Assembly (NCBI GenBank): GCA_021772435.1
Contig: JAJFLZ010000025.1
Coordinates: 55,502-119,501, forward strand
Source: Chlamydiota bacterium
GTDB lineage: Bacteria > Chlamydiota > Chlamydiia > Chlamydiales > JACKPQ01
Length of the DNA: 64,000 bases
Direction: 5' to 3'
Part shown: positions 3,861 through 58,475 of the stretch, piece after piece
Layout: each line of letters starts with the position of its first letter
Numbering within the stretch: position 1 is the stretch's first letter
Program-made: the position numbers and the translations under genes
The notes under the pieces: model-generated
Databases searched by the model: none
What the model was told of the DNA's origin: nothing
The model's input: the letters and a program-made list of their open reading frames with translations, nothing else

Positions 3861-5774
3861 ATGACAGCCATTGATCATTTAGGTCGAAATTCATCCATTA
3901 CCTCTAAAGGCTCTCAACCTGCAACGAATAAAACGATGTTGATTGCCTTAGGCATTTTGACTGGGGCCGTGCTGCTTGGCACGCTCGTTTATTGGAAATG
4001 GCCAGCCAGTCAAACTGTAGCGCCTCCTAATTCCACTCCTCCAAATAACCATCCTGACCCATTACCAACAGATGAAGCAGGCATCAATCATTTGCTTAAA
4101 ACAAAAACCCTTGATGAAATTCAAAATGCGATTCAAAAAGGATTGAACGTTGATAAGGCAAGTCACATGGAAACGGCGCTCCTGCGCTCAGATGATGATA
4201 TTGCAAGCTTAGTTGCAGAAAAGCTCTCCGATCCAAACGTGCAAGTCAACGGCAAGCCTATTTTAGCTGTTGCTGTGGAAAAAGCATTTGACAAAACAGC
4301 TGCCGCTCTTGTCGGAAACAAGGCGGATGCTGATTTAAATATGGGAGGTTCTGAAAATAAGCCTCTCATTTATTTTGTCATTGAAAAGAAGCTGCCCAAA
4401 ACGCTTGCTCTACTGGCAAAGGATGCGAAGGTCAATGAGAAGACATATAAGATTAGCCCTGAAGAAATATCGACGCCTTTAAGGTATGCGCTGAAAATAA
4501 AATTTGACGAAGGTGTTGCTGCTTTTATCAATGCAGGCTTGTACAAGACCTATGAGGATATAACTGTCCATACATCCATACATGACTCAAAAACTCCATT
4601 ACCGCTTTCTGAAAAAGCTCTTCTAGATAATAAAATAAATAAATCAAATTGTGACAAGTTGTATTGTAAAAACGAAAACGACATCGATGTAGAGGCGTTA
4701 TCTCAAGAGGAAAAAGATCAACTTCTGAGACATGCATCTAACTTAAAGATGTTCACTTTTGCACGCACGCTTGTAGAAAGTGGCGCGAATCAAATGATAA
4801 AGCACTTTGGCGAAGAAGAAGAACCCTTGATGTTTCTGGCAGCAATTCATGACGATATAAACCTTTTTTGGGCGTGCTTAAAACAAAAACCCGACTTAAA
4901 TAAAACTTATGCATGGCAAGGTGAGAAATATACGCCCCTACAGTACTGTGTGGATGAGCAAAAGCATGATTGCACCTCGTTACTTGTGAAAGAGGGTGCC
5001 AACCCTGATTCTAACGTAAGATGGTACAAAGGAGCGTTCATAACCGAATCGGCGCTCCTTTTTTATGGGATCCACCATTCCTCAGAAGAGATTGTTCAAG
5101 CATGTATCGAGCAAGGTGCTAACTTAGATCGTCTAGACAATGGAAAGAGCCTCATGGAATATGCAAATGAGGTTGGGGCAGACAAGCTCATCAAATTGCT
5201 TTACAGAAAAGGAAGGGATTCAATTCGCGATATCATGAGACCTGGCATGGATGACTTTGTTTTGGAGCAGAAGTTAGACGAGCTGAAGCTAGATGATCGC
5301 CCTCATCTGCTAAATTTCCTTATTGATCGGGGCAAAACCAAAGAAGCAAAAGAGCAAGTTGACGTGCTTGATGCATCGAATCAGAGTAAACTCCTTCAAA
5401 ATAAGTCTTTATCGGCTGCCTCACTGTTATGGGTACTTGACGTTTTCAAGCAACATACGCTAACTCTACCCCAGCATGTAAAACTTCTAAATTACCGTCT
5501 TGAGCAAGGTGAAAATGAAGCTGCAAAAGAGCAAATCAATCTACCTAATGATAATCACCGGAAGCAAATCCTTCAACATAAGGATATATCTCCAAAAGTG
5601 CTTTTATGGATGGTCAGCAATAAGAATTTATTTTCGGACGGAGATATTGCCATACACAAGCTTGTTATAGGCCAACTGGAAAGGGGCGACTACGACAAGG
5701 TAGTTGACGCCTTTGGCTCTCAAACACCGTATAATACTTTAAACGATATGACGTTTTCTGATGAGGATTTTTAA
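3861..5774 (+). CDS. Membrane-anchored ankyrin-repeat protein (candidate secreted effector)
   Basis: 637 aa with one N-terminal TM helix (MLIALGILTGAVLLGTLVYW). Ankyrin-like repeats are present (KPILAVAVEK...AAALVGNKADADL; YTPLQYCVDEQKHDCTSLLVKEGANPD; LMEYANEVGADKLIKLL). The C-terminal part contains a tandem duplicated module of about 50 aa. Confidence 0.75.
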   Translation: MTAIDHLGRNSSITSKGSQPATNKTMLIALGILTGAVLLGTLVYWKWPASQTVAPPNSTPPNNHPDPLPTDEAGINHLLKTKTLDEIQNAIQKGLNVDKASHMETALLRSDDDIASLVAEKLSDPNVQVNGKPILAVAVEKAFDKTAAALVGNKADADLNMGGSENKPLIYFVIEKKLPKTLALLAKDAKVNEKTYKISPEEISTPLRYALKIKFDEGVAAFINAGLYKTYEDITVHTSIHDSKTPLPLSEKALLDNKINKSNCDKLYCKNENDIDVEALSQEEKDQLLRHASNLKMFTFARTLVESGANQMIKHFGEEEEPLMFLAAIHDDINLFWACLKQKPDLNKTYAWQGEKYTPLQYCVDEQKHDCTSLLVKEGANPDSNVRWYKGAFITESALLFYGIHHSSEEIVQACIEQGANLDRLDNGKSLMEYANEVGADKLIKLLYRKGRDSIRDIMRPGMDDFVLEQKLDELKLDDRPHLLNFLIDRGKTKEAKEQVDVLDASNQSKLLQNKSLSAASLLWVLDVFKQHTLTLPQHVKLLNYRLEQGENEAAKEQINLPNDNHRKQILQHKDISPKVLLWMVSNKNLFSDGDIAIHKLVIGQLERGDYDKVVDAFGSQTPYNTLNDMTFSDEDF

Positions 5775-5775
5775 G

Positions 5776-6720
5776 CTAACGTTTTTGTTGAAAGATTGAT
5801 TTTGGTGCTGCTCCAAAACGTTTGTATGTAAAATCTTTTACACCTTGCTTGGCTGAGTCTAAAACTTGCAATTGTTTTTTCTTTTCGGGATTGGCAAGGG
5901 ATTGGAGTTTTTTTAAAAGCGAGTGGCGATAGAGTTTGGCAATCTCTGGAATAAAGACTTTGCGTAAAAGGCGACGTTTTTCTTTTGCTGAGCAATTGCG
6001 TTTGATCCAAAGGAGCCGCCCGCGCCAGTCGTAGTAGGTCGTGTGGGGCTTTCCGCCCGTAAAGGAGCTCGAGACCTTATGGTAAACTTTAGCGTTTGGA
6101 CAGGTTTTAATGGTAAAGCCCAGTTTCTTGGCGCGCGCGCAAAAGTCGCTTTCTTCCCAATAGAGAAAAAATAAAGGTTCGAGAAGGCCAGTCGTTTCAA
6201 AAACAGATCGCTTAGCAATGAGGCAGGCGCCGCAAACGTAGTCGACAGCTTGTGGCTTATCGTATGAACCATCGTCGATTTTGCCAGCTGCGATGAGATC
6301 AAAATGCCCTTTGTCAGGGTCCCAAATGCCACCTAGATGATCAAAGCGGTTTTTGTCTTGAGCGGTGTAGAGTTTAGGGCCCATGATGTCATCGTTTTGA
6401 GACAGAAACGCATTTAAAAATTCTGGATCGACGGTGGTGTCGTTGTTTAGCAGTAAAAGGTAGTCGGCGCCTTTAGCCAGGGCATAGCGGATGCCAACGT
6501 TGTTGCCTTCTGCAAATCCTAAGTTTTGATGCGTGGGAATTAGTTTGACATCTGGATGATGTTTTTGAATTTCTAGAATGGAGTTATCTTTGGAACCGTT
6601 ATCGATGACGATTGTTTGGTAATTTTGATAACGGATTTGCTTGAGCGAGCTCAGGCATTCAAGCGTATCTTTTTGGCCGTTAAAGTTTACGAGAATAATA
6701 TAGACTAATGGCTGAGACAT
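5776..6720 (-). CDS. Glycosyltransferase family 2
   Basis: 314 aa. The N-terminal GT-A signature is VYIILVNFNGQKDTLECLSSL...YQTIVIDNGSKDNS, followed by LLLLNNDT. Confidence 0.85.
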   Translation of the reverse strand: MSQPLVYIILVNFNGQKDTLECLSSLKQIRYQNYQTIVIDNGSKDNSILEIQKHHPDVKLIPTHQNLGFAEGNNVGIRYALAKGADYLLLLNNDTTVDPEFLNAFLSQNDDIMGPKLYTAQDKNRFDHLGGIWDPDKGHFDLIAAGKIDDGSYDKPQAVDYVCGACLIAKRSVFETTGLLEPLFFLYWEESDFCARAKKLGFTIKTCPNAKVYHKVSSSFTGGKPHTTYYDWRGRLLWIKRNCSAKEKRRLLRKVFIPEIAKLYRHSLLKKLQSLANPEKKKQLQVLDSAKQGVKDFTYKRFGAAPKSIFQQKR

Positions 6721-8876: not shown

Positions 8877-11027
8877 ATGACAAAAGTGGTAACATTTCAA
8901 ATTCAGGGGCTCGATTGCCCCAGCGAAGAAGCGATTTTAAGACGGGTATTAGAGGACCAAGAGGGCGTTTCTGATTTGTCCTTTGATCATTTAAATGGTC
9001 AGATGCAAGTAACATTGGACCAATCAAAGATTGAGATCGACCAGGTGATTCGGCTCGTGCGCTCAGGTGGTATGCGCGCTAAAGTTGCAGATGGTGAAAT
9101 AAATCAAGATCAGCAAACCCTTTGGCAAAAATATGGCAGATCGGTCATGACAGCGATCAGTGGTTTGAGCTTAATCGTTGGTTTTACATGGCATCTGCTT
9201 GAAGAAGGGGGCGCATCGGGCGTTTTAGCAACAGCCGGCGGAGCAAAAGTTCCTCATGGTGCAATCTACTTTTATATTCTTGCCATCATCACTGGCGGCT
9301 ATTTTATCGTACCCAAGGCAATCGCTGCAGCCAAGCTTTTAAAACCCGATATGAATATTTTGATGTTTGTCGCCGTGGTTGGTGCTAGCCTTATCGGGGA
9401 ATGGGCAGAAGCTGCAACCGTGACATTTTTATTTTCGGTTGCCCTATTTTTAGAGCATTGGAGTTTGGGCAGAGCAAAAAAAGCGATCGGTTCGCTCATG
9501 GAACTGAGTCCTCAGCAGGCGCACGTCATTGAGCCTGGCGGCATCGTGTCAAAAAATGTCAATGAAGTAGAAATTGGGCAAACCATTGCAATTAAACCGG
9601 GAGACAAAATTCCGCTAGATGGTCGCGTGATCAAAGGGGTATCAAGCGTTAACCAAGCAGCGATCACAGGCGAGTCTATGCCGGTGTCCAAAGAGCTAGA
9701 TGATTCTGTATTTGCTGGAACGCTCAACGAAGATGGATTGTTAGAAGTTGAAGTGACTAAAAAAGCCGGCGATACGACACTTGCTAAGATGATTGAACTT
9801 GTCAAACAAGCGAGTCACAAAAGAGCCAAGGCACAAAGCTGGGTCGAGAAATTTGCGACTATCTACACACCCGTCATGATTATTTTGGCAGCAGCTTTTA
9901 TTCTCATCCCGCCTTTATTTTTTGGAGGCGCTTGGAATGAGTGGATTTATCGCGGTCTTGTCATTTTAGTCATCGGTTGTCCATGTGCTCTAGTCATCTC
10001 CACGCCAGTTAGTATCGTTGCGGGGCTAACTGCTGCTGCAAAACAAGGCGTACTCATTAAAGGCGGCATCCATTTAGAAACAGCCGGCCGTTTAAAAGCT
10101 CTTGCTTTTGATAAAACGGGAACGCTCACTTATGGTAAACCCGTTGTCCAGCAGATTGTTCCCTTAAACGATCACACCGAAGAGCAGTTGCTTTCCATTG
10201 CGGCATCGCTAGAATCTGTTAGCTCTCATCCCTTAGCTAAAGCGATCATGGCAAAAGCACTTGATGCAAAAGTTGAAATTAAACGACCCGATAACCTGCA
10301 AGTCATCCAGGGCAAAGGCGCTGAAGCTGTGCTTGACGGCGAGAACTATTGGATTGGAAGCCACCGCTTTTTACACGAAAAAAATCTCGAAACGCCTGAA
10401 ATGCATGCCAAAGCAGTGGAAATGGAAGATGCGGGACATTCAATCATCGTCATCGGTACAAGCAAGCACGTTTGTGGCATCATCAGTGTAGCTGACGAGC
10501 CCAGGGAAAATATTGCCGATACTATCGCAGAGTTAAAACGTAGCGGCATTAAAGAAACCTTTATGCTAACAGGTGATAATCAGCCAACAGCTAAAGCTCT
10601 AGCTTCCCATAGTGGTGTCGATCGTTATTTTGCCGAACTGCTTCCCGAAGACAAAGTACGCACGATGCGCCAAATGGTCCAACGTTGGACTTATGCTGGC
10701 ATGGTAGGTGACGGTGTTAACGATGCTCCAGCTATGGCTTCATCTTCACTTGGTATCGCTATGGGAGCCGCGGGCTCTGACAGCGCCATTGAAACAGCAG
10801 ACATTGCTCTTATGGCAGATGATTTGTCTCAGCTGCCCTGGCTCATGCGTCATTCGCGCAAAACGCTTAAAACGATTAAATCTAACATCGCTTTTGCGCT
10901 TGGCATCAAAGCGATCTTTTTGTGCCTAGCGATTTTTGGCTTTGCTAGCCTCTGGATGGCGATCGCTGCCGACACAGGCGCCTCGCTCCTTGTCGTCTCA
11001 TACGGCTTGCGCCTTATCCGTCCGTGA
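8877..11027 (+). CDS. zntA: Heavy-metal translocating P1B-type ATPase (Zn/Cd/Pb type)
   Basis: 716 aa with an HMA-like N-terminal domain, CPC in TM6 (GCPCALVISTP), DKTGTLT, GDGVNDAPA and ADTGASLLV in the last TM helix. Confidence 0.9.
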   Translation: MTKVVTFQIQGLDCPSEEAILRRVLEDQEGVSDLSFDHLNGQMQVTLDQSKIEIDQVIRLVRSGGMRAKVADGEINQDQQTLWQKYGRSVMTAISGLSLIVGFTWHLLEEGGASGVLATAGGAKVPHGAIYFYILAIITGGYFIVPKAIAAAKLLKPDMNILMFVAVVGASLIGEWAEAATVTFLFSVALFLEHWSLGRAKKAIGSLMELSPQQAHVIEPGGIVSKNVNEVEIGQTIAIKPGDKIPLDGRVIKGVSSVNQAAITGESMPVSKELDDSVFAGTLNEDGLLEVEVTKKAGDTTLAKMIELVKQASHKRAKAQSWVEKFATIYTPVMIILAAAFILIPPLFFGGAWNEWIYRGLVILVIGCPCALVISTPVSIVAGLTAAAKQGVLIKGGIHLETAGRLKALAFDKTGTLTYGKPVVQQIVPLNDHTEEQLLSIAASLESVSSHPLAKAIMAKALDAKVEIKRPDNLQVIQGKGAEAVLDGENYWIGSHRFLHEKNLETPEMHAKAVEMEDAGHSIIVIGTSKHVCGIISVADEPRENIADTIAELKRSGIKETFMLTGDNQPTAKALASHSGVDRYFAELLPEDKVRTMRQMVQRWTYAGMVGDGVNDAPAMASSSLGIAMGAAGSDSAIETADIALMADDLSQLPWLMRHSRKTLKTIKSNIAFALGIKAIFLCLAIFGFASLWMAIAADTGASLLVVSYGLRLIRP

Positions 11028-11250: not shown

Positions 11251-11417
11251 TAACCTGAACTCTGGGTTTATATCATTCATCTTCAGGCATCTTAGCCGCC
11301 ATCTTGCACCCTTTTTGAGCTCATCTATAGCTTTTGGCTATAGAATCGCAAAAAATGGCACAATCTGTCACCTAATCTGCTCTGAATCTAAACAATCAAA
11401 ACCCAGAGTTCAGGTTA
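11251..11417. mobile_element. MITE-like element, copy 1 (167 bp including the TA flanks)
   Basis: Perfect terminal inverted repeats: TA-ACCTGAACTCTGGGTTT at 11251-11269 and AAACCCAGAGTTCAGGT-TA at 11399-11417. There is an internal hairpin CTATAGC-ttttg-GCTATAG. It is homologous to 59986-60153, and its right end matches 57534-57585. Confidence 0.7.
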
Positions 11418-14400
11418 ACTAAGTTTTTTGGCTCTTATTTTATACGTATTTTTACATTCAATACCCTTTCCATTCATCCAAGTAAGAGGTTTAGAGATTT
11501 TTTGCATTTCTGCATTTTGGGTGCCGGTATTAAAAACCAAGTAAAGGCGATAGCTATTAGGCTCTTTGTTCATGAGGTCCCATTCATTGCTAGACATCGA
11601 AAAATGAACATCATCTTGTTGTGTCGATTTGATTTCTATGTATTTAGTCACAGGAGGTTTTGCAACTTTTGTCTTAGTTAGCTTCATATCGTAAGGCTCA
11701 TAGCTTTCCTCGTGTTCATTTAGCCATTGAAGTGCTATTTTTGTCCCCTTGTTCGTTGTCAGTTCATATTGGTCATTACCAGTAAGCTGGAAGGAAGATG
11801 GAGATTTCTTTTCATAATGTGCTGTTAGCTCACTGAAAGCAAAGCTTTCGCCCCATTTTCCAATTTCTATTTTTTGTTTTTCTGATGTCCGAGCTTTGTA
11901 TTTTTTCGCAGGTTTTTTTGCTTTAGGTTGCTTACTTGGTAATGGCTCACTTTGAATTTTCAGTTTTTTGATTCCTCTGGGTGGAGGTAATGAAGATAAG
12001 AGAGGATCAGGTGAGTGGGGTATGGAATCGTCTGGCGACCCCGGGCTGCCTACGGGAGCTGTGCTCGGAGGGTCTGTTACCGGATTTGGGGGAAAGAATT
12101 CATCCGATTCTACATTAAGATCTGGGATATCAGGTGATGGAGGTTGGGATAGTTCAGGGGAGGTGGGACAAGGGATTGGTATGGAGCTGGTGTTATTAGA
12201 ACATTTAGTTAGTTGGTCTAAATACGTTTGAAGATCGCATAAGTCTCGTGCAGGTATTCCGTTATCATTTATCCAGTCTTGTATGTTTACTGCCTGTCTA
12301 GTTGATATCCCCTCTTTTAAATAAAAAATATCTTTAAACTCTTTTAGTTGATTAATACCATTAAATTCTAAGTAGTTTCCGATTGCTTCTGTAATTTTTT
12401 CCTCAATGCAACTATTCGTATAATAAATATTATTGTTGAGTTGAGCTATGTGCAGCAGGCGCATGCCTTTGCGCTTCTTTATGGAGCATTCTTTGTATAT
12501 ATTTAACTGATTAAGCAGATTAAATAGATTTTTCAACACATCTTTATTAGGCTGATTTAAATAATGGGCAGCGCTCCATGCTAGTAAGGGAAGTCTTTTT
12601 TTGACTCTATCTTTGTAAACTGTATCCAGTTTCTCATCTGATATATCGCTAGGGTTAATGGATCCAAATTCGACGGGGCGTCCAAAGTGCTCTGCTAACA
12701 ACCGCATGTCTGTTTCTTCGAGAATATTTTTAAACCATTGACCAGCCTCAAAGGTTGGATCAGTCCCTTGCACTGCAAAGCACGTAAGCGATTTCACATC
12801 TCTCCACTGATTATTATTTGCTACAAAAAGCCATGGTTTTCTTAAATAACTCTTTTTTTGAACACAGTCATAGCTGTCCCAATTTGTCACTAACTGTCTG
12901 ATGGCGATCTCGTATTTTTTCAGGTCTGGTCGAGATTTTGCTAAATCTATCAGTAGGTCGTAACAAAGCTCTAAGGAAAGATGTGTTTCAAAACCTAAAT
13001 GTTTGATGAGATCATCAGTTAAATCAGACTGAATTTTGGCTGAAGTAACCCTTGCCATATTTAAAGCTTGTAAATCTGGGCTGTAGAGGCTGGTTATCGT
13101 TTCATATTGGTTATCTGTACCCAGAATGCACTTGTTATGCCCTAAGTAATATTGAATGTATGACAATTTTTTGCCAGATAAGGATCTTTTTTGTTTGTTT
13201 CTAGTAACGAATTGGCATTGTTTATCTATTCGCAAAAAATCTTTCGAACTGACTTTTAGGCAATTCCAGAAGTAGTTTGCAAAAGCTGGGTGTTTCATAT
13301 TTTCCATGTTAGGAAAGTAGCAGAAGTTTGTAAATTGGTGTGTTGATGTAATTGGATCTTTAAGAATTTGATTTTGACCACGAACGAGATAGGTTAGGTA
13401 GGAATCTAGGTTGTGTATCCCACATCTTCTCAGCTCTTCAACACTTGTGGGTTCGTCCACACAGTGGAGTTTGAGCTCTGTTTTTAACCCTAGACCAAGA
13501 AAAAACTGTAAACGTTGCTTTTGTTCTTCTCCAGTTAAATAACTCGGACTCAAAAACGCGCTTGTAGAATTTGGCATGAGGTGTTCCAATGGCAGGCTAT
13601 CGGAGGCGCGATAATCTGTAGGAAGGTAAAGTTCGCGTGCCGGGCTAAAGCCTTTTGACTGATTTAAAAGTGACATTGTTTGCAGTGTTGCTAAATGTGA
13701 ATCGTGAATCAGCCCAGTAGAAAACAACCTAAATAAGTACTTGATAATTTGAGAGCTGGTATCCCATTCAATCACATTTTGTGAGAGGTAGCCAGGTATA
13801 TATTTATCAACAACCCGCTCTATTGATAAGGGTTCTATGCCTATTTGTTTAAGCCATCTTCTGAGTTGGCCGTCTTGGTCGAGCTCAAGAATAGCTTCGC
13901 TAATGGTTGGTATTTCAATGAATGATGGTGGTTGTGGGATTTCGCGATCAGGTGGAAAAGAAATCTCAGATAGTTTTTTTGCTTTGCCCGAATTTGAGAT
14001 AACAAAGGCTATATTTTTGAGCTGATCGTCTGAAATCATACCTGAAGAACATCGGTCTTTCAAAAATAATAGCGCACGATAACAAAGCCCTGAGTCAGGG
14101 TTTTGCTGAAAAATCTTCTCTAGATGGGCTAGTATTTCTTTATCTGTGATTTTTTTGGACGTAAATAAGGAGAGCTTGTCTATTTGTTTCAAATCTGGAT
14201 GAGCAAGATCATTAGGAATTAAAGTTCTTGGGAGATCGTTCAGGAATGCTTTATAAAAGCCTGTGCCATCTATTATGCACTCTTTCGCTTTGAGCAGCTG
14301 CTTAGGGTCATGACAGTTTGGAACCCATGCGTAATTGTCTAGCCCAAACATAAATCCATTCTTATAAGAGGAGCAGAACCTATTAGGTACACTTGCGATC

Positions 14401-15467
14401 TCTGGTGGAGCGGAAACACTCACCACATTTTTCCAATCCGAACTTGCAGCAATTTCCCTTAAGCATTCAAAATGTAGAGCAGCAAGCCAGTAAAATATAT
14501 GATCGTTGAAAGTGTCTTCAACGAGGTGCTCTCGTTGTGCTTCTAAGAGAAATTCGGTATTAATCCCAAAGGGAATGCCCAGCTTAACTTTTGTTGGTAA
14601 CGTATTAAAAAGCGGTAAAAGAGTTTGAGGAAAAGCATCGATTTCATTCGTGCTATTTAAAAAGAAAACAAAAGTGACTTTAATTTCGTCCGCATTTTTA
14701 ATTCGATCAGGACAAGTGGTCGTGTTTAAACTTTGCAAGTGTGGGTGGAGGCTTGTGATATTTATGGTTTTTGTCTTAATCAAATAATTGTTTTGTGCTC
14801 TGTTTGTAGACAGGCTCCTGACGGGCTCTTGATCCGTTCGTACAACAGTAGTAGTTTGCCCACCGCTGGCTGTGAACGATATCTTTTTAATATTTCTTAG
14901 AAATAGAAGTGGAGTTGGGTTGTGGATAAAATCATTCATTTGATTGATGTACTTGTCTGGATGAATGAGCTTAAAAATGAAGGTAACCTTGGATGTATCT
15001 ATACCTTCTGGTGCGGATTCCCAAATGGGTAGCATTTGCCAGGGTGCACCTGGAAGTGTGTGCCAATAGTCTTTGTCAAAACAAAAAGTGTAGTTTTGAG
15101 AAATGATGTGGACTTTAGATGCAAGAGACAAAGTTCCCTTAAAGCCGATGCCTTTAAAGCCCGTCATTTCAGTATTCTCAGACTTGTTAACCAATGTTCG
15201 GTTTGCAAAGCTTGTAATTTTTTCTACATCTCTGTAATCAAAGTGTTTGCCATCATGGGTAATCGTAAGTTGGTCCTTATCTAACTTAAAGTAAACATTT
15301 AAGCCTCCAGCATCGTCGGTATTTTGCAAAAGCTCGTTTATAAAACGACCGTCTAAAGTACCCTCGGCAAAGTTGGTTATATCAGCTGCAAGCTGAAACC
15401 ATTGAGGATTGTCATAGCGCTTGTAAAGCTTTTCGACATGAGCCTGAGGACTGATTTTTCCTGCCAT
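11415..15467 (-). CDS. Giant GHKL (sacsin/MORC-like HATPase_c_3) ATPase with a C-terminal DUF3883/NO VEIN-C-like PD-(D/E)xK-type domain
   Basis: 1350 aa. The Bergerat N-box ELLQNTDDA lies at nt 15309-15335, followed by GFKGIGFKG. A Pro/Ser- and Lys-rich linker sits near aa 1095-1190. The C-terminus carries GESFAF, PYDMKL, YIEIKST, FSMSSNEW and YRLYLVFN. Confidence 0.75.
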   Translation of the reverse strand: MAGKISPQAHVEKLYKRYDNPQWFQLAADITNFAEGTLDGRFINELLQNTDDAGGLNVYFKLDKDQLTITHDGKHFDYRDVEKITSFANRTLVNKSENTEMTGFKGIGFKGTLSLASKVHIISQNYTFCFDKDYWHTLPGAPWQMLPIWESAPEGIDTSKVTFIFKLIHPDKYINQMNDFIHNPTPLLFLRNIKKISFTASGGQTTTVVRTDQEPVRSLSTNRAQNNYLIKTKTINITSLHPHLQSLNTTTCPDRIKNADEIKVTFVFFLNSTNEIDAFPQTLLPLFNTLPTKVKLGIPFGINTEFLLEAQREHLVEDTFNDHIFYWLAALHFECLREIAASSDWKNVVSVSAPPEIASVPNRFCSSYKNGFMFGLDNYAWVPNCHDPKQLLKAKECIIDGTGFYKAFLNDLPRTLIPNDLAHPDLKQIDKLSLFTSKKITDKEILAHLEKIFQQNPDSGLCYRALLFLKDRCSSGMISDDQLKNIAFVISNSGKAKKLSEISFPPDREIPQPPSFIEIPTISEAILELDQDGQLRRWLKQIGIEPLSIERVVDKYIPGYLSQNVIEWDTSSQIIKYLFRLFSTGLIHDSHLATLQTMSLLNQSKGFSPARELYLPTDYRASDSLPLEHLMPNSTSAFLSPSYLTGEEQKQRLQFFLGLGLKTELKLHCVDEPTSVEELRRCGIHNLDSYLTYLVRGQNQILKDPITSTHQFTNFCYFPNMENMKHPAFANYFWNCLKVSSKDFLRIDKQCQFVTRNKQKRSLSGKKLSYIQYYLGHNKCILGTDNQYETITSLYSPDLQALNMARVTSAKIQSDLTDDLIKHLGFETHLSLELCYDLLIDLAKSRPDLKKYEIAIRQLVTNWDSYDCVQKKSYLRKPWLFVANNNQWRDVKSLTCFAVQGTDPTFEAGQWFKNILEETDMRLLAEHFGRPVEFGSINPSDISDEKLDTVYKDRVKKRLPLLAWSAAHYLNQPNKDVLKNLFNLLNQLNIYKECSIKKRKGMRLLHIAQLNNNIYYTNSCIEEKITEAIGNYLEFNGINQLKEFKDIFYLKEGISTRQAVNIQDWINDNGIPARDLCDLQTYLDQLTKCSNNTSSIPIPCPTSPELSQPPSPDIPDLNVESDEFFPPNPVTDPPSTAPVGSPGSPDDSIPHSPDPLLSSLPPPRGIKKLKIQSEPLPSKQPKAKKPAKKYKARTSEKQKIEIGKWGESFAFSELTAHYEKKSPSSFQLTGNDQYELTTNKGTKIALQWLNEHEESYEPYDMKLTKTKVAKPPVTKYIEIKSTQQDDVHFSMSSNEWDLMNKEPNSYRLYLVFNTGTQNAEMQKISKPLTWMNGKGIECKNTYKIRAKKLS

Positions 15468-29698: not shown

Positions 29699-29740
29699 AA
29701 GATATGGCCACTTATAGATTTTTATAATTGGCCATATCTT
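29699..29740. promoter_or_regulatory. 12-bp perfect inverted repeat (hairpin or operator) between nifU-like and the AAA+ gene
   Basis: AAGATATGGCCA (29699-29710), an 18-nt AT-rich loop, then TGGCCATATCTT (29729-29740). A third GGCCAgTTATAA half-site lies at about 29759-29771. Confidence 0.5.
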
Positions 29741-29816
29741 CTTGAGTAAAATAGATGCGGCCAGTTATAATAAAATTCAAGTTCCTTAAGCGTCTAAAAA
29801 TCAATAGATAACAAAA

Positions 29817-31283
29817 ATGAAAAAGCAAAAAATTATAGGTCGCGAAAATGAGATTGGAATTTTTCGAGAAATTGAGCGTTCAAAAAAAGCTCATTTTGTT
29901 GCTGTTTATGGACGTAGACGGGTTGGCAAAACTTATCTAATACGACAGTATTTTTCGCATAGCAAAAGTCTTTACCTAGAAGCGACTGGCGTAAAAGATG
30001 CTTCCATAAAAGATCAGCTGAAGAAATTTGGGGAAGCCATCGCTAAGGCATTTTTCGATAATGCGCCCATAGAAACTCCAGCGAGCTGGGATAAAGCTTT
30101 TAAGACGGTAACAGAGCGAATTCAAAAACTTTCTCACAGAAAGAAAATTGTGATGTTTTTGGATGAATTGCCGTGGCTTGCAACCAAAAGATCAAAACTT
30201 GTTCAAGCCCTCGACTATTACTGGAATGCTCATTGGTCGGAGCTTCAAAACTTTACTCTCATTGTGTGTGGTTCTGCTGCATCATGGATGTTGGATAACC
30301 TCATCCACGCAAAAGGCGGATTATACAATCGTATTACAAATAAAATTCATTTAGAACCTTTTGATTTGAAAGACACGGAGACATTTTTAAGAAGCTTGTC
30401 CATTAGACTCAGTCGCAGTCAAATTGTTGAACTCTACATGGTGACAGGCGGTATTCCTTTTTATCTGAAAGAGGTCAGAAAAGGTCGGTCGGCAACTCAA
30501 ATAATCGATGATCTATGCTTTAAAAAATCTGGTCTTTTACATACGGAGTTTAAAAATCTGCTGTATGCTCTTTTCGATCAAGCGGAAGTCCATCACAAAA
30601 TTATTGGGGAGATAGCCAAGGCTGGATCTACTCTTTCTCGAGAGGCATTACTCAAAGCGTTAAAAATCTCATCCGGGGAGTCGATAAACAGACGCCTATA
30701 CGAATTAGAGGCATCAGGCTTTATCCAATGCTATATTCCATACGGAAAAAAACGCAGAGATAGGTACTACCGCATCGTCGATGAATACACGCTCTTTTAT
30801 CTTAAATGGATCGAACCACTTACGCGAAGTGGAGTCTATTCAGGAAAAGAATCCCACTGGCAAAAGGTGGTTAAAAGTCCTGGTAGATACAGCTGGGCAG
30901 GTTATGCTTTTGAAGGCGTTTGCCTAAAACACGTTCATCAAATCGCAGTAGCTTTAGGTTTGTCGCAAATTCCTTTTCTGGTTGGGACGTGGCGTCTGAT
31001 TCCTCGCAAAGGCTCAAAAGAGCAAGGCGCGCAGATCGATCTATTATTTGATCGAGATGATGGAATCATTACCATTTGCGAAATCAAGTACTGTGAGCAA
31101 AAGTTTGTTATCGAAAAAGTCTATGGCAAAAACCTCATACAGAAAATGGAAGTTTTTGAGTCCCGTCTAAAAATATCCAAGCAGCTTGTTTTGGCCATGA
31201 TCACAACTAAAGGTGTGAAGAAAAACTTATGGTCGCAGGAGCTGATAAACGCTGAAGTTACTCTTGATGATCTGTTTCACTAG
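29817..31283 (+). CDS. AAA+ ATPase (archaeal-ATPase type) with a C-terminal DUF234 PD-(D/E)xK nuclease-like domain
   Basis: 488 aa. Walker A is GRRRVGKT and Walker B is VMFLDELPW. The C-terminus GYAFEGV...QIDLLFDRDDGIITICEIKY carries the D...E-x-K pattern. Confidence 0.8.
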   Translation: MKKQKIIGRENEIGIFREIERSKKAHFVAVYGRRRVGKTYLIRQYFSHSKSLYLEATGVKDASIKDQLKKFGEAIAKAFFDNAPIETPASWDKAFKTVTERIQKLSHRKKIVMFLDELPWLATKRSKLVQALDYYWNAHWSELQNFTLIVCGSAASWMLDNLIHAKGGLYNRITNKIHLEPFDLKDTETFLRSLSIRLSRSQIVELYMVTGGIPFYLKEVRKGRSATQIIDDLCFKKSGLLHTEFKNLLYALFDQAEVHHKIIGEIAKAGSTLSREALLKALKISSGESINRRLYELEASGFIQCYIPYGKKRRDRYYRIVDEYTLFYLKWIEPLTRSGVYSGKESHWQKVVKSPGRYSWAGYAFEGVCLKHVHQIAVALGLSQIPFLVGTWRLIPRKGSKEQGAQIDLLFDRDDGIITICEIKYCEQKFVIEKVYGKNLIQKMEVFESRLKISKQLVLAMITTKGVKKNLWSQELINAEVTLDDLFH

Positions 31284-31968
31284 TCTCGTAATCAGTGGTT
31301 TTGATAATGGTGCCGTTTTCGAGTTTGACCTCCAAGCGACCATCTTGGGAGGCTCCTTGCAGGATGCCTTGCTTGGAATCGATGGTGATAGGCTCCCCTT
31401 TTTTGGCTAGGAGTGTGTTGTAGGCTGATTGAAAGGGTGCAAAACCATCTTTGAAAAAGAGCTTGAGGTCCTGCTCAAGCTGTTTGGAGATGTCGCCTCG
31501 CATGGCTGTAATCGAAAATTCTTTGTTTTTTTCGGCGAGTAGGGAAGTAGCTGGTTGGTCGATGGTGTCACAAAGGTCTTTTGGCATGTTGATGTTAAGG
31601 CCAATGCTGAGGATTGCTGTTTGATCTACGACTTCACAAAGAGTGCCGGCGCATTTTTTTGTGTTGAGCAGGATGTCATTAGGCCATTTGATGACAGGGG
31701 AAAATCCTGCGTTTTTTAAAACGTGCGCAGTTGAAAGGGAAATGATCTGACAAAGATTGTGAGCTGGAGTCTTTGGCGGCAGAAAAAAGACAAATGTGGC
31801 ATAAAGGTTTTGATCTCGGGGAGAGACCCACGAGCGGCTCATGCGTCCGCGTCCAGCGGTTTGTTCATTTGCAGTGATGCAAAGGATAGGATTTGGTTTG
31901 AGCTCGCTTAAGTGGTCTTTGGCCCACGAGTGTGATGATGTAACACTTTCAAGTTCGATGTAATCCAT
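31258..31968 (-). CDS. birA: Biotin--[acetyl-CoA-carboxylase] ligase
   Basis: GRGRMSRSWVSP motif. The likely start is MDYIELES at 31968. The track ORF extends to 32094. Confidence 0.85.
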   Translation of the reverse strand: MDYIELESVTSSHSWAKDHLSELKPNPILCITANEQTAGRGRMSRSWVSPRDQNLYATFVFFLPPKTPAHNLCQIISLSTAHVLKNAGFSPVIKWPNDILLNTKKCAGTLCEVVDQTAILSIGLNINMPKDLCDTIDQPATSLLAEKNKEFSITAMRGDISKQLEQDLKLFFKDGFAPFQSAYNTLLAKKGEPITIDSKQGILQGASQDGRLEVKLENGTIIKTTDYETSETDHQE

Positions 31969-32002
31969 GCTTTGGAACCCTTTGGCTCTTCGCCGCATTG
32001 AC

Positions 32003-33085
32003 ATGCGTCCTATTCCCATCATTTTACTGTTGATGGGGATTAGCTTGCTTGTGCTTGTTGCCACATCGGGCGGCGATATTTTGTTTTGCCCCATCGTTAA
32101 AAAACAACTGCAATGGTTTGCTATTGGATGGGTGGCTTATTTTTTCTGTGCAGGCCTAGATTACCATAATTTGCGCAAATGGGCACCTTTTTTGTATGCG
32201 CTTTCTCTGATTCTTTTGATTGGTTTGTTTTTTACTGATCCGATTCATAATGTGCGCAGATGGTACCGCTTACCACTCATTGGGATTGAAATTCAGCCGG
32301 CAGAGGTAGCCAAACTGGCACTTGTTATTGCTCTGAGCAGCTTTATTGAGAAAAAGGGGCGCAGCATACGCCGGTGGCCGGTGCTTTTTCAGGCGTGCTT
32401 ACTTGTTTTTGCGCCGTTTGTACTGATTTTGAAACAGCCGGATTTGGGCTCGGCGCTTATTTTGATGCCGATTACCTTGGTGATGTTTTATTTTGCAGGA
32501 ATCAAAAGACGAGTGATAGCCCTCATGTCAATTGGAGGACTTGCGCTCTTGTTATTTATCAACATGATGTTTTTGGGTTTTATCTCGCACGAGGGAATGA
32601 GGCCCATTGTAACCAAAGTGCTCAAAGAGTATCAATACGAGCGCCTCAACCCCAACACGTATCACCAGCGGGCATCGCAAACAGCGATTAGCCTTGGGGG
32701 TTTGACCGGTAGTGGTTGGAAAAAAAGCGAATTTACCGGTAATGGATTTTTACCCGAAGCAAGAACAGATTCTGTTTTTGCAGCCTACGCTGAAGAATTT
32801 GGCCTGTTTGGCGTTTTTGGTATGCTGCTTGCTTTTTTCGGTTTGATCTATTTTAGTTTTCAGGTTTCTGCTCTTGCCAAAGATCCCTTCGGCCGGCTAT
32901 TATCAGCAGGAATAGCGGTATACTTGGCGATGCACGTTGTGGTCAATATTGGCATGATGTGTGGCTTTTTGCCCATCACGGGTGTGCCGCTCATTTTAGT
33001 GACTTATGGAGGGTCTTCGATTTTGGCGACGATGAGCGCATTGGGTATTTTACAGAGCATTTTTTCAAAAAGGTTTATGTTTTAA
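32003..33085 (+). CDS. rodA: SEDS-family peptidoglycan glycosyltransferase (RodA/FtsW)
   Basis: Polytopic protein with QPAEVAKLALVI, TDSVFAAYAEEFG and PITGVPLILVTYGGSS. The likely start is MRPIPIILLL at 32003. Confidence 0.88.
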   Translation: MRPIPIILLLMGISLLVLVATSGGDILFCPIVKKQLQWFAIGWVAYFFCAGLDYHNLRKWAPFLYALSLILLIGLFFTDPIHNVRRWYRLPLIGIEIQPAEVAKLALVIALSSFIEKKGRSIRRWPVLFQACLLVFAPFVLILKQPDLGSALILMPITLVMFYFAGIKRRVIALMSIGGLALLLFINMMFLGFISHEGMRPIVTKVLKEYQYERLNPNTYHQRASQTAISLGGLTGSGWKKSEFTGNGFLPEARTDSVFAAYAEEFGLFGVFGMLLAFFGLIYFSFQVSALAKDPFGRLLSAGIAVYLAMHVVVNIGMMCGFLPITGVPLILVTYGGSSILATMSALGILQSIFSKRFMF

Positions 33086-33953: not shown

Positions 33954-35078
33954 ATGGCTATTGTTCTTCAATTTGATTCAGTAACCATTGTGCATCGAGA
34001 TAACCCAAGCAGGCATGATGATTTAGACCAGTGCATACAAAACAAAGATATTCAAAAACTGCGCTCATGTTTATTAGCAAAGTCTCTAAGTGATGTGCCG
34101 CCGAAATATATCATAAAAATCATTGAAGCTGACTGGCATGAGGGTGTAGATCTTCTCATTGAAAAGTTTCCTGAAATTAGTCGGCGCAAGATGCGTTATT
34201 TCAAAGCTGCGGTTTCAGAATGCGCTTTTAAAGCTGTGCAGTATTTTTCCCCAGAGCAATTTAGCTTAAGTGACGAATATATTGCTGATGCCATTGAAGC
34301 ATTAGATGGTGATGTTAAAAGTGATGCATTTATTCAGATAGTAGAATGGCTTATTGAGCGCGGGCATCCTGTTTCGGGAAGATTGTTTTATAGTTTTGCC
34401 TTCATAGCCTATTCAGATGCAGATGTTTTACTGAAATTGGCGGAATTGCTGATAAAGCATGGTGCCGACCCTAATTATAAGAGTATAGATGAGGATGAGC
34501 GGGACCTATCTGATCCACTGCTATTTTTATTAGATAGCTATTGTTATCGCAAAACGTCAATTATTCCAAAATACCATGGAAAGCAGGCTCCTGTAAATTT
34601 AGGAGCTGTCAAAGCTTTATTGGCAGTTGGAGCAGATGGGACTGCCGTTGACCGTAGGCATAACAACGTTTTACATCATTTCGGGTTTATTGCTGATCAA
34701 GACGAGGCTTCTATGCAAGAGCTGTATCGTCTGTTAATTGAGCATGGAGCTGATCCCACTGCCAAAAACTCTAGCGGATACCCCCCACTCTTATGGGGAG
34801 TTAATCCAGATTGTAGTTTGTCCAAAATCATCATGATTCAAAATGGTGCTGACTTGACTGTAAGAGGCCCAGACAAATCGACATTTGGCCATATGCTTTT
34901 TATCAATCCGCCAAAAGAAGAGCGCGTGAATCGAATTATAGCTTTGCTTAAGGCGTATGGATTTAATTTCGATTTAAAAGATAATGAGGGCGTCTCAGTT
35001 GCTAAGTGCGTTCAAGGGTGGGAGGATATGCATCCTCACCCATCAAAGCGCATAAAACAAGATGGTGCTTTGCGTTGA
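33954..35078 (+). CDS. Ankyrin-repeat protein
   Basis: 374 aa. Repeats end in LLIKHGADPNYKS, LLAVGADGTAVDRRHNNVLHH, LIEHGADPTAKNSSGYPPLLW and IQNGADLTVRG. Confidence 0.85.
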   Translation: MAIVLQFDSVTIVHRDNPSRHDDLDQCIQNKDIQKLRSCLLAKSLSDVPPKYIIKIIEADWHEGVDLLIEKFPEISRRKMRYFKAAVSECAFKAVQYFSPEQFSLSDEYIADAIEALDGDVKSDAFIQIVEWLIERGHPVSGRLFYSFAFIAYSDADVLLKLAELLIKHGADPNYKSIDEDERDLSDPLLFLLDSYCYRKTSIIPKYHGKQAPVNLGAVKALLAVGADGTAVDRRHNNVLHHFGFIADQDEASMQELYRLLIEHGADPTAKNSSGYPPLLWGVNPDCSLSKIIMIQNGADLTVRGPDKSTFGHMLFINPPKEERVNRIIALLKAYGFNFDLKDNEGVSVAKCVQGWEDMHPHPSKRIKQDGALR

Positions 35079-35769: not shown

Positions 35770-36267
35770 TTAATCAATGTCGATGCGGTCTAAAGCATTA
35801 CCAACACCTTTCCACTGCTGTCCTCTACCTTCAGCTTTATCAAAAGAAGATATTTTTGCACCTTTAAATTCTATGACATTTGGAGTGCGGGGAAAGTGGA
35901 TAAATAAAGATCGTGATGCATTAGCATTACCAGCGTAGAGACAGCCTTCTTTAGGGGTAATACTACCTTGTTCGATGTTGGCAATTTTTTCTAATAAGGA
36001 CATATATTCAATTGGAAAAGAAAAGTGCATAAGTTGAAATTTTTCGAATTTGTATTTTGTTGCGACAAACTTTTCATTGAGGGCTGGTTGATTGGGGTTG
36101 AAGTACATAAATTCTATTGCAATAGCTACAATAAAATCTTTGGAAAGTGGGTCAAAACAAAAAAGATGGCATTGGTGTTGATCAAGACGAGAAGCATCTA
36201 AACTATAGATTACTCTGTCTAATTGAGGATTCCTTACGAAAGGAAGTCTGTTTTCTACTTTAGGCAT
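35770..36267 (-). CDS. Hypothetical protein
   Basis: 165-aa ORF with no recognisable motif. Visibly AT-richer on reading than the ribosomal genes next to it. Confidence 0.5.
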   Translation of the reverse strand: MPKVENRLPFVRNPQLDRVIYSLDASRLDQHQCHLFCFDPLSKDFIVAIAIEFMYFNPNQPALNEKFVATKYKFEKFQLMHFSFPIEYMSLLEKIANIEQGSITPKEGCLYAGNANASRSLFIHFPRTPNVIEFKGAKISSFDKAEGRGQQWKGVGNALDRIDID

Positions 36268-42893: not shown

Positions 42894-43640
42894 ATGCGTA
42901 CGCTATTGTTGATTTTGGCATGTATGACAAGCTGCTTTGTTTTTGGATGGGGTGAGAATAAATACCATTTAGCTGCAGAACAAGGTGAAGTGGAGGTCTT
43001 TAAAGATTTATATCGTTTGTTAGAAAGGTTTTGTACTGTTTTAGAAATAAGAGAGTGGGAGGAAGGCTCATCTTTAGACCAGCTGTTAAGAGATCGGGAT
43101 GATGAGGCCTTTGTGGAATGGCACAAACGGCTAAATGATAAAGATTCCGACAGAAAGACACCTTTACATCGAGCAGCAGAAAATGGAGAAGCTAAGACAA
43201 TAAAAGCCATTTGCAAGCTATCGCGTCAGTCTTTAAATGCTAAAGATGATGAAGACAAGACGCCCTTGCATTATGCTGCATTAAGTGGAAATGAGGAGGT
43301 TGTTAATGCTATCTATAAGTACTCGACTGAATCCAAAAATGCACAAGACGAGAATGATAAAACCCCACTTCATTATGCAGCTGAAAAAGGTCACGCACGG
43401 GTAATAAAAGCATTATGTAAAGCCTCCTGGATTGAGTTAAACGAAAAGGATAGATCTGGGAAAACACCTCTGCATTATGCGGCAGCCAACGGAAAAGAAG
43501 ACGCCGTACGGGCCTTATGCGATCAATCAGATATAGATCTTAATGTGCGGGACAATAATGGCAACACGCCATTGATTTGTGCAGCTCTTGCAGAATATCT
43601 AGACATCGTTGAACTTCTTCGAGACGAAGGTGCAAATTAA
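42894..43640 (+). CDS. Ankyrin-repeat protein with a Sec-type signal peptide
   Basis: MRTLLLILACMTSCFVFG from the ATG at 42894. There are at least five canonical repeats (KTPLHRAAENGEAKTIKAI, KTPLHYAALSGNEEVV, KTPLHYAAEKGHARVIKAL, KTPLHYAAANGKEDAVRAL, NTPLICAA). Confidence 0.85.
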   Translation: MRTLLLILACMTSCFVFGWGENKYHLAAEQGEVEVFKDLYRLLERFCTVLEIREWEEGSSLDQLLRDRDDEAFVEWHKRLNDKDSDRKTPLHRAAENGEAKTIKAICKLSRQSLNAKDDEDKTPLHYAALSGNEEVVNAIYKYSTESKNAQDENDKTPLHYAAEKGHARVIKALCKASWIELNEKDRSGKTPLHYAAANGKEDAVRALCDQSDIDLNVRDNNGNTPLICAALAEYLDIVELLRDEGAN

Positions 43641-57692: not shown

Positions 57693-58475
57693 TTAGCGCA
57701 AAGCTTCAGTAAGCAGTTTTCTTAGATTTGCGTATTGGTATTTATCTTGTATTTGCTGGCGTTCTGTTTTGTATTTTGCAATCATTGGGTCCGGATCAGA
57801 GAAAGATTTAAACATAGGCAGTGGCAAGTCAGAAAGCGAAATGTTCTTTTTAAACCTGGCATTGAGCAGATCTTTAATAGAGTTAGAAAACTTTGCATTA
57901 GAAGTGTCTATTTTAAATTTTTCAGAATTTTCGATGCCATAACCATAAAAAATGCCGCAAGCAAGATGGTGTTTAAAAATCTTTGTCCAAAAATAGGAAT
58001 CTGGTTCATCAATTGTATTGATGACATCGTCAATATTAAAATCTTCGCCTAAATGCTCAGCAATTTTAGAATAATATTCTTGCAGAGCTGCCCGCACCAA
58101 ATTTTTGTTAACTAAACATAAATCTTCAGAGGATTTTTCTCTGATAGTTACCAAAGAAAAATGGCTAGAGTTTATTGGGCGTCTTTTTTTCCAGTGCTTC
58201 CAAAGATCGGGTAGTTCTTTTTTGAAGTGATTAGATTTTGTAAATTGTAAGCCAAAGATAGGTGTTGGTTCAGCAGGCTTGGAATTGTTGACTTGTTTAT
58301 AGCTAAGCAAAACGCTTGTGATTGGTTTAGATCCAAGCAGAGTATAAATACCGGTCTCGCGAATCAGCAAATACTCTGCAAAAGCTCTTTCAGTTTGTTG
58401 TTTTTTGTATTGATAGGGCAGCCATGAGATGATAGCGAGCCCTACCAAAGAAAAAATGATCCACTTTTTTTTCAT
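57693..58475 (-). CDS. Hypothetical membrane-anchored protein (orphan)
   Basis: 260 aa with an N-terminal TM helix (WIIFSLVGLAIISWLPY). I recognise no family. Confidence 0.55.
   Translation of the reverse strand: MKKKWIIFSLVGLAIISWLPYQYKKQQTERAFAEYLLIRETGIYTLLGSKPITSVLLSYKQVNNSKPAEPTPIFGLQFTKSNHFKKELPDLWKHWKKRRPINSSHFSLVTIREKSSEDLCLVNKNLVRAALQEYYSKIAEHLGEDFNIDDVINTIDEPDSYFWTKIFKHHLACGIFYGYGIENSEKFKIDTSNAKFSNSIKDLLNARFKKNISLSDLPLPMFKSFSDPDPMIAKYKTERQQIQDKYQYANLRKLLTEALR

Follow-up and report, generated by a model that had tools for sequence, protein, structure and literature searches.

We describe a solitary gene for a fused ATPase and nuclease in a Chlamydiota bacterium, found in a stretch of DNA of 64,000 nucleotides (positions 55,502 to 119,501 of contig JAJFLZ010000025.1, assembly GCA_021772435.1), which we analysed as a whole and refer to as the window. 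The complete coding sequence lies at 29817-31283 on the forward strand, between genes for NifU and BirA, and encodes a protein of 488 amino acids from an ATG start to a TAG stop. Judged by its sequence, the protein is a member of the ATPase_2/DUF234 group (COG1672, 'archaeal ATPase') and of the subfamily that PADLOC catalogues as the candidate defence system PDC-S27. The explanation that we favour, with moderate confidence, is that of a single-chain PDC-S27 ATPase-nuclease which is an old insertion at this locus and probably restricts invading DNA. The defence role itself we regard as roughly an even bet, given a negative test in E. coli and the lack of a defence island.

The assignment comes from a full-length match to the PADLOC PDC-S27 profile (PDLC04984; E = 7e-174, 577 bits), in which residues 4-487 align with positions 2-473 of the 474 in the profile. 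The initial annotation of this DNA, made by a model from the sequence, had called the gene a plausible stand-alone defence candidate, functionally uncharacterised, and the PDC-S27 match fits that description. This kind of gene is already catalogued in PADLOC, the present one is a further member of a known candidate family, and overall it is of modest interest.

Phage defence candidates (PDCs) were identified by guilt-by-embedding as genes nested in BREX, DISARM and type I restriction-modification loci (Payne et al.; 10.1101/2024.01.29.577857). PDC-S27, an ATPase fused to a PD-(D/E)xK domain and awaiting validation, is reported to rank with the commonest candidate defence genes of archaea and to be frequent in bacteria as well; single-gene PDCs are described as enriched in host-dependent bacteria such as Chlamydiota (PMC12988326). 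DUF234 has been listed since 2012 as a PD-(D/E)xK family fused to AAA+ ATPases (PMC3424549). The family is large, with more than 8,000 matches in a 90%-clustered database. At E <= 1e-3 a 50%-clustered library contained 7,620 clusters, of which 893 reached E <= 1e-30; nearly all of the top 150 had full length, at 470-500 residues. An NCBIfam search of the protein returned nothing relevant.

Domain organization

Identity and architecture are near-certain: an AAA+ ATPase, a lid, a winged helix and a PD-(D/E)xK nuclease follow one another in one chain. Position and length of the reading frame had been given exactly in the initial annotation, and the motifs that it listed (Walker A, Walker B, AFEGV, QIDLLFD and ICEIKY) were all found in the translation. 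Coordinates below refer to the forward strand unless another is given.

The AAA+ core and lid occupy residues 9-220 (29841-30476) and match Pfam ATPase_2 (PF01637) at E = 1.6e-21, with 77.6 bits against a gathering score of 33.2, in the Pfam check that the initial annotation had proposed. Two nucleotide-binding motifs are read directly from the sequence, namely Walker A, GRRRVGKT (residues 32-39, 29910-29933), and Walker B, IVMFLDE followed by LPW (residues 111-117, 30147-30167), with the acidic pair D116-E117. According to the strands of the structural model, the segment 30267-30338 runs from the end of beta4 (C151-G152-S153, the sensor-1 position) through G167-G168-L169-x-x-R172 (the arginine-finger position, before beta5). 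From their places in the AAA+ topology we infer that S153 may serve as sensor 1 and R172 as arginine finger. The ATPase_2 score above its gathering threshold, both Walker motifs and the sensor-1 and arginine-finger residues at canonical positions together place the protein in the AAA+ class. Conservation further picks out the lid motif GGIPFYL (residues 211-217, 30447-30467), which is of the GxP type as in STAND NTPases.

A winged-helix DNA-binding domain is predicted at residues ~244-320 (30546-30776) from the order of helices and strands in the model. Pfam gives weak matches to z-alpha, LexA_DNA_bind and HTH_24 around residues 255-305, and HTH_24 was also found in 18 of 68 homologues; weak nSTAND6 matches occurred in 12 of the 68 and NB-ARC matches in three of the 68.

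The C-terminal domain (residues 340-488, 30834-31280) is assigned to the PD-(D/E)xK nucleases, DUF234 type, from its modelled structure, fold matches and conservation. Its putative active-site residues, taken from the model and from conservation, are E366 (30912-30914), D408 (31038-31040) and the pair in E422-x-K424 (31080-31088); they lie within AFEGV (residues 364-368), QIDLLFD (406-412) and ICEIKY (420-425). The AlphaFold2 model of the full-length protein, built on the family alignment, has a pLDDT of 93.0 and a pTM of 0.90 and shows a five-stranded AAA+ core, a helical lid, the winged helix and a C-terminal alpha-beta-beta-beta-alpha-beta domain, in that order. When modelled alone (pLDDT 93.8) the C-terminal domain has the same alpha-beta-beta-beta-alpha-beta topology. 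E366 falls in the first core helix (residues 355-371), D408 in the second strand (405-413) and E422-x-K424 in the third (417-424), so that both the core PD-(D/E)xK fold and the catalytic E...D...(D/E)xK arrangement are present in the model.

Foldseek searches of the Protein Data Bank (PDB) with the full-length model returned PAB2304 (2qen), ORC/Cdc6, RuvB and the NB-ARC modules of plant NLR proteins, together with MalT-like and STAND-like folds. The top matches of the C-terminal domain were mostly PD-(D/E)xK nucleases: AF1548, NucS/EndoMS, Cas4-family ACE1, AspBHI, BstEII, McrC, LmuA, SduA, the Avs3 nuclease, Can2 and RecU, with Exo5 also among the close fold matches. Searches of PDB sequences with this domain, by sequence and by profile, gave only noise.

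Among 83 cluster representatives with 34-47% identity, G32, R33, G37, K38, T39, D116, E117, S153, E422 and the lid residues G212 and Y216 were invariant, and R172, E366, D408, K424, G211 and P214 were conserved in at least 90%. Since the key residues are conserved at such low identity, the ATPase and nuclease sites are both under family-wide constraint.

Membership of DUF234 is transitive rather than direct, because it is found through homologues: 61 of the 68 homologues, which are 51-73% identical, match DUF234 at E <= 0.01. In homologues the match maps to residues ~327-427; P0012 with 26.5 bits and P0079 with 26.4 bits exceed the gathering score of 22.5, and the 73% orthologue reaches 17.3 bits. 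Hence the DUF234/PD-(D/E)xK reading put forward in the initial annotation holds as regards the modelled nuclease fold, the conserved E366, D408, E422 and K424 and the homologues, but not as regards a direct Pfam DUF234 match.

Probable gain and loss between nifU and birA

Loci for comparison of gene order were gathered by exact-protein look-ups; a scan of genome contigs contributed three distant loci only. The order at this slot in the window is His_Phos, Aminotran_5, NifU, the ATPase gene, BirA and FtsW. An identical protein is found on two more contigs with the same neighbours, and a 73%-identical orthologue occupies the same slot in another Chlamydiales species (GCA_024233455.1 and four other contigs; loci L006-L010). 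Neither the window copy nor those on five independent contigs of this sister species show any break in the 488-codon frame.

Four relatives (L015-L018) lack the ATPase gene and have NifU next to BirA in what is otherwise the same block (phosphorylase, PHO4, PhoU, RluB ... NifU, BirA, FtsW, then ORFs of 150 and 111 amino acids). The spacing of NifU and BirA is 166 nt in L015 and 27 nt in L018, and the two genes overlap in L016 and L017. The gene is therefore wedged between the nifU-like gene and birA, as the initial annotation worded it, and the presence/absence comparison that it called for shows that the position is not conserved across relatives.

Eight to nine flanking proteins rank the relatives by closeness to the window as L015 (84-95%), then L006 (70-91%), then L016, then L017 and L018. 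The gene is thus present in the window and L006 and absent both from the closer L015 and from all outgroups, for which one gain and one loss is the most parsimonious account. On this comparison of sequences, a segment of ~1.6 kb comprising leader and reading frame probably entered the nifU-birA junction a single time, in the ancestor of a small clade of environmental Chlamydiales that includes the window, L015 and L006, and was then probably inherited vertically and later deleted in at least one lineage, that of L015. Of the leader behind NifU, L015 keeps the initial 74 nt, at 84% identity and with all three copies of a repeat described below; beyond them, 84 unrelated nucleotides replace window positions 29770-31270. 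A tblastn search of the loci without the gene found no remnants of the ATPase reading frame above chance; the 5' leader alone survives, in L015. No transposase, integrase, target-site duplication or terminal inverted repeat was found around the insertion in the window.

At its 3' end the ATPase gene overlaps the convergent birA gene by 26 nt (31258-31283), counted from the birA stop codon at 31258-31260 on the reverse strand, exactly as first annotated. Where the ATPase gene is absent, the 3' end of birA overlaps NifU instead, by 32 nt in L016 and 21 nt in L017. Because birA overlaps occur also in loci without the ATPase gene, we take the 26 nt to reflect compact gene packing and no special feature. 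The start of birA (31258-32094, reverse strand) is ambiguous: the longest reading frame has 278 amino acids, as against 246 (31258-31998) in gene calls on identical contigs, and both starts overlap the divergent ftsW reading frame, which begins at 31967.

In L016, one of the relatives without the ATPase gene, a DUF1016_N gene (YhcG-type nuclease family; 9404-10021) follows the conserved block, and is a different accessory gene at a nearby variable position.

Composition and selection

The ATPase gene has a GC content of 0.402, compared with 0.443 +/- 0.033 for 61 genes of the window (z = -1.22, eighth lowest), and a GC content at third codon positions of 37.6% (z = -0.73). Measured by codon-usage distance from the rest of the window, it ranks 16th of 17 long genes (Karlin B 0.199), and almost no other long gene comes closer. 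The initial annotation had called the gene AT-rich from two 60-nt spot counts. Those counts were right (0.367 at 29881-29940 and 0.317 at 30301-30360), and the gene is indeed poorer in GC than its neighbours NifU (0.474) and FtsW (0.449), but the spots are not representative, the gene lies within the normal spread of the window and its codon usage is native. Part of the GC deficit goes back to the high content of F, Y, M, I, N and K in the protein (0.317 vs 0.276). With GC content and codon usage ordinary for the window, composition offers no evidence of recent import, and recent horizontal transfer was rejected on this measure (GC z = -1.2, native codon usage).

Against the 73% orthologue, pN/pS is 0.21 overall and 0.24, 0.15 and 0.20 in the three domains, so that, as far as sequence divergence can tell, the gene and all three parts of the protein are under purifying selection. 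A pseudogene was rejected on the same figure (pN/pS ~0.2). Between the window and L006, pN is 0.158 for the ATPase, 0.176 for NifU and 0.185 for BirA; the divergence of the ATPase is about that of the slower-evolving neighbour genes. Its divergence between the two species keeps step with that of its flanks, which marks the gene as an old insertion in the clade and not a newcomer.

The two most AT-rich reading frames of the window, both on the reverse strand, are 35770-36267 (GC 0.357) and 57693-58475 (GC 0.354). Neither has a Pfam or PADLOC match, and both deviate more in composition than the ATPase gene.

The leader upstream of the gene

Four nucleotides after the NifU stop codon, the 18-nt inverted repeat I1 (AAGATATGGCCACTTATA / TATAATTGGCCATATCTT; 94% complementary) forms a hairpin at 29699-29740 (forward strand) with a predicted RNA folding energy of -29.7 kcal/mol (z = -4.08). 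The hairpin is conserved in L006-L010 and L015 and absent from L016-L018; it probably either terminates the HisPhos-Aminotran_5-NifU transcript or binds a protein. An Rfam scan of the hairpin region gave only sub-threshold, miRNA-like noise.

The motif AGATATGGCCAnTTATA, of 16-17 nt, occurs in three copies at 29699-29769. Two of them form the hairpin, and the third (29754-29769) overlaps the -10 hexamer of a promoter-like site, TTGAGT-18-TATAAT (29742-29771, forward strand), that lies 46 nt upstream of the ATG and is recognised by consensus match only (10 of 12 positions). An equivalent site, TTGCAG-18-TATAAT, is found in L006. The repeats are kept in the sister species and in L015, and are absent from the outgroups and from the loci of distant homologues. 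Since L015 retains them without the gene, they do not depend on the ATPase gene. The repeats could represent either a terminator combined with an operator or the scar of a recombination event. A metagenome-wide scan for the 16-nt repeat gave 120 single-copy matches, which is the chance level for 15 specified bases, and no three-copy arrangement.

Occurrence in other genomes

The gene neighbours differ at every distant homologue locus (L011-L014, also L019 and L064), with no conserved partner gene. Chlamydiota homologues of 57-63% identity sit in entirely different housekeeping neighbourhoods and always alone. With such unrelated neighbours at the six distant loci, and with NifU and BirA as neighbours in the window, the description of the gene as a stand-alone orphan proved apt. 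As in the window, neither transposase, integrase, terminal inverted repeat nor target-site duplication was found at four other chlamydial loci.

The best plasmid match (49.5% identity, full length) is carried by a plasmid of Ca. Paracaedimonas acanthamoebae, an Acanthamoeba endosymbiont (L064; CP008939.1 131657-145925), where the homologue lies directly downstream of two transposase genes and is annotated merely as a hypothetical protein. Relatives are also encoded on 45 IMG/VR contigs. Upstream of the best of these (44% identity, with a PDC-S27 match; L019 1272-11387, contig 3300045922_001167) lie genes for a phage portal protein and a sulfate permease; downstream there are genes for an ankyrin protein and, ~4 kb away, a tyrosine integrase. 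The locus resembles the margin of a prophage or of an integrative element in a symbiont. The unrelated contexts, the plasmid with its transposases and the viral contig indicate that the family is mobile on longer time scales. Rhabdochlamydiaceae, Simkaniaceae, Anoxychlamydiales, Algichlamydia, Verrucomicrobia and Legionellales appear as source names among the matches listed, and from these names the closest relatives would seem to circulate among amoeba-associated and PVC bacteria.

At L013 a PDC-S01 gene (AAA_14 + DUF4143; E = 1.2e-99; 1606-2751) lies three genes upstream of the PDC-S27 homologue (5001-6461), so that two candidates of the ATPase + PD-(D/E)xK kind are loosely clustered there.

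Comparison with known systems

The window protein agrees with PDC-S27 in length, in its ATPase + PD-(D/E)xK architecture and in its single-gene organization, and shows no structural difference from it; the window gene, however, has housekeeping genes around it, with no other defence system enclosing it. The Walker-type ATPase PAB2304 of Pyrococcus abyssi (2qen, 350 residues) is the best match both by sequence and by fold, but it aligns with the ATPase, lid and winged helix only, and the alignments stop short of the C-terminal nuclease domain. PDC-S01 (AAA_14 + DUF4143) has the same design of a P-loop ATPase with a C-terminal PD-(D/E)xK-type domain. The cross-match to it is weak (E = 1.9e-7, in the ATPase part) and the ATPase and nuclease families differ; as a full-length match is lacking, we do not place the two in the same family.

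The Avs/AVAST STAND NTPase-nucleases (Avs3, 8dgc) share the NTPase switch, the GxP lid, the winged helix and a PD-(D/E)xK effector with the window protein. The NLR NB-ARC folds match at TMq 0.45-0.48, and the Avs3 nuclease domain is matched as well. This likeness suggests, by analogy, an assembly-activated nuclease that may work like Avs. The 488-residue protein nevertheless ends in its nuclease domain, which in Avs3 and Avs4 is N-terminal, and it lacks the repeat or sensor domain that would follow NBD-HD-WHD in STAND proteins of the Avs type; the arginine at the AAA+ arginine-finger position we count as a further difference. Despite the similar GxP lid and winged helix, we have therefore not filed it as Avs/STAND, since it ends at residue 488 without repeats.

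ORC/Cdc6 proteins have the same order of AAA+ core, lid and winged helix but no nuclease. With McrBC the window protein has in common the principle of an NTPase-controlled PD-(D/E)xK nuclease, and McrC is among the fold matches; McrBC, however, consists of two proteins, is a GTPase and reads DNA through a separate domain. No relationship to ORC/Cdc6 or McrBC was detected at the level of sequence.

The locus forms a clean natural experiment, with an otherwise identical housekeeping block found with and without the gene in close Chlamydiales, and its sequence conservation indicates that the gene has probably long been kept functional in an obligate intracellular lineage. With these two properties it would be a sensible choice for biochemical study of the family, and it is one more instance of the enrichment reported for single-gene candidates among host-dependent bacteria. 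Activity and a solved full-length structure have been reported for no PDC-S27 member, and the present locus leaves that as it is.

Proposed mechanism and alternative explanations

We propose a model where ATP binding and hydrolysis would control self-assembly, either into a ring or spiral of the AAA+ and ORC/Cdc6 kind or by a STAND-like switch. Assembly would take place on DNA held by the winged helix and would bring the nuclease domains side by side, leading to cleavage of the DNA. The protein would act alone, needing no partner genes, and its role would be to restrict invading DNA (phages, plasmids or integrative elements) or to cleave the cell's own DNA abortively upon infection. Invading DNA is the most likely target because the gene is accessory, solitary and mobile and because the family was first found embedded in defence loci.

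Several observations weigh against this explanation or narrow what it can claim. The steps of oligomerization and activation are drawn by analogy with ORC/Cdc6, McrBC and Avs-type proteins. The Foldseek matches of the C-terminal domain are modest (E ~3e-3 to 0.1, best 2.8e-3; TM ~0.45-0.49), and Pfam DUF234 (PF03008) was not matched at E <= 1 by the full-length protein or at E <= 10 by the isolated C-terminal domain. The loss in L015 is read from a contig of 11.6 kb, and the gene could sit elsewhere in that genome. No defence island surrounds the window gene, its adjacent genes being His_Phos, Aminotran_5, NifU, BirA and FtsW, and the nearest PADLOC match, TmtA, is ~14 kb away and is the only other defence-type gene in the window. 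To our knowledge, few phages of environmental Chlamydiae have been described. We found no biochemical or genetic evidence for any PDC-S27 member in the literature. When eight candidates were assayed in E. coli B against T4, T5 and T7, four protected and the one PDC-S27 representative was not among them; this is the sole functional test of PDC-S27 that we found in the literature (10.1101/2024.09.26.614923), and other papers naming PDC-S27 give prevalence only.

The lack of phage protection by that PDC-S27 would also suit a genome-maintenance enzyme, that is, an ATP-dependent structure-specific nuclease that would serve repair, recombination or the restart of replication by acting on DNA of the cell itself and not of invaders. 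Such a function would agree with the repair enzymes NucS/EndoMS, RecU and Exo5 among the nuclease fold matches, with the resemblance of the ATPase to ORC/Cdc6 and RuvB, and with a gene of native codon usage that purifying selection has retained within a block of housekeeping genes. Yet the gene is missing from four close relatives, the nearest included, at an otherwise identical locus, and elsewhere it turns up in unrelated contexts, among them plasmids and a viral contig that has both portal and integrase genes. Scattered presence and varied contexts are typical of accessory genes and not of core repair genes, and we consider a maintenance function unlikely. Quite unlikely, in our view, is a variant in which PDC-S27 is not anti-phage but an ATP-gated DNA-surveillance nuclease that polices plasmids, integrative elements or aberrant DNA in host-dependent bacteria meeting few phages, with the present copy autoregulated through the clade-specific triple repeat of 16-17 nt over its promoter. 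If true, this variant would account for the phage test having been negative, for the long persistence of the gene under purifying selection in an intracellular lineage and for the enrichment in amoeba symbionts. Mobility on its own could point to a selfish module, namely the cargo or remnant of an integrative element, or an AAA+ transposition regulator of the TnsC/TniB/IstB type, that persists by spread or addiction and not by protecting its host. The ATPase does have weak profile similarity to TnsC (E = 7.7e-4), and one homologue to TniB; homologues lie beside plasmid transposases and ~4 kb from the integrase of the viral contig, and the slot itself shows an insertion/deletion polymorphism. 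This possibility appears very unlikely, however, as the window copy and four other chlamydial loci have no mobility genes, terminal repeats or target duplications, and co-divergence with the flanks over ~25% protein divergence is unlike an actively moving element.

More improbable still is a DNA-binding regulator or NTP-dependent switch, in which the winged helix would act on the upstream repeats (for autoregulation, or for control of the nifU or birA operon) and the nuclease fold would be a non-catalytic sensor or clamp. Three AGATATGGCCAnTTATA copies between nifU and the gene, one of them over the -10 of the candidate promoter, would provide sites for the winged helix, and MalT-like and STAND-like folds are among the structural matches. 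Family-wide conservation of E366, D408, E422 and K424 would be unexpected for a non-catalytic domain, though, and the repeats are confined to the clade, do not occur upstream of distant homologues and persist in L015, where the gene is gone. That the gene is a decaying, non-functional leftover of the old insertion we find scarcely credible: its loss in the closest relative and a GC content slightly below that of its neighbours could be read in this way, but against them stand the intact frame in the window and in five independent sister-species contigs, pN/pS ~0.2 in every domain, the retention of all catalytic residues and the conserved promoter-like site.

Other defence-type and ankyrin genes in the window

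The TmtA match mentioned above belongs to a reading frame of 1350 amino acids at 11415-15467 on the reverse strand (GC 0.388), which matches PADLOC TmtA (Tiamat) over its full length (E = 3.8e-146) and in which Pfam detects an N-terminal Sacsin-type domain and a C-terminal NOV_C. It is presumably the other ATPase-nuclease candidate to which the initial annotation alluded.

Three ankyrin-repeat proteins are encoded on the forward strand, at 3861-5774, 33954-35078 and 42894-43640. Their PADLOC matches to PDC-M72A and 'Ankyrin' probably reflect the repeats alone and not defence; such repeats are characteristic of effectors from amoeba-associated intracellular bacteria.

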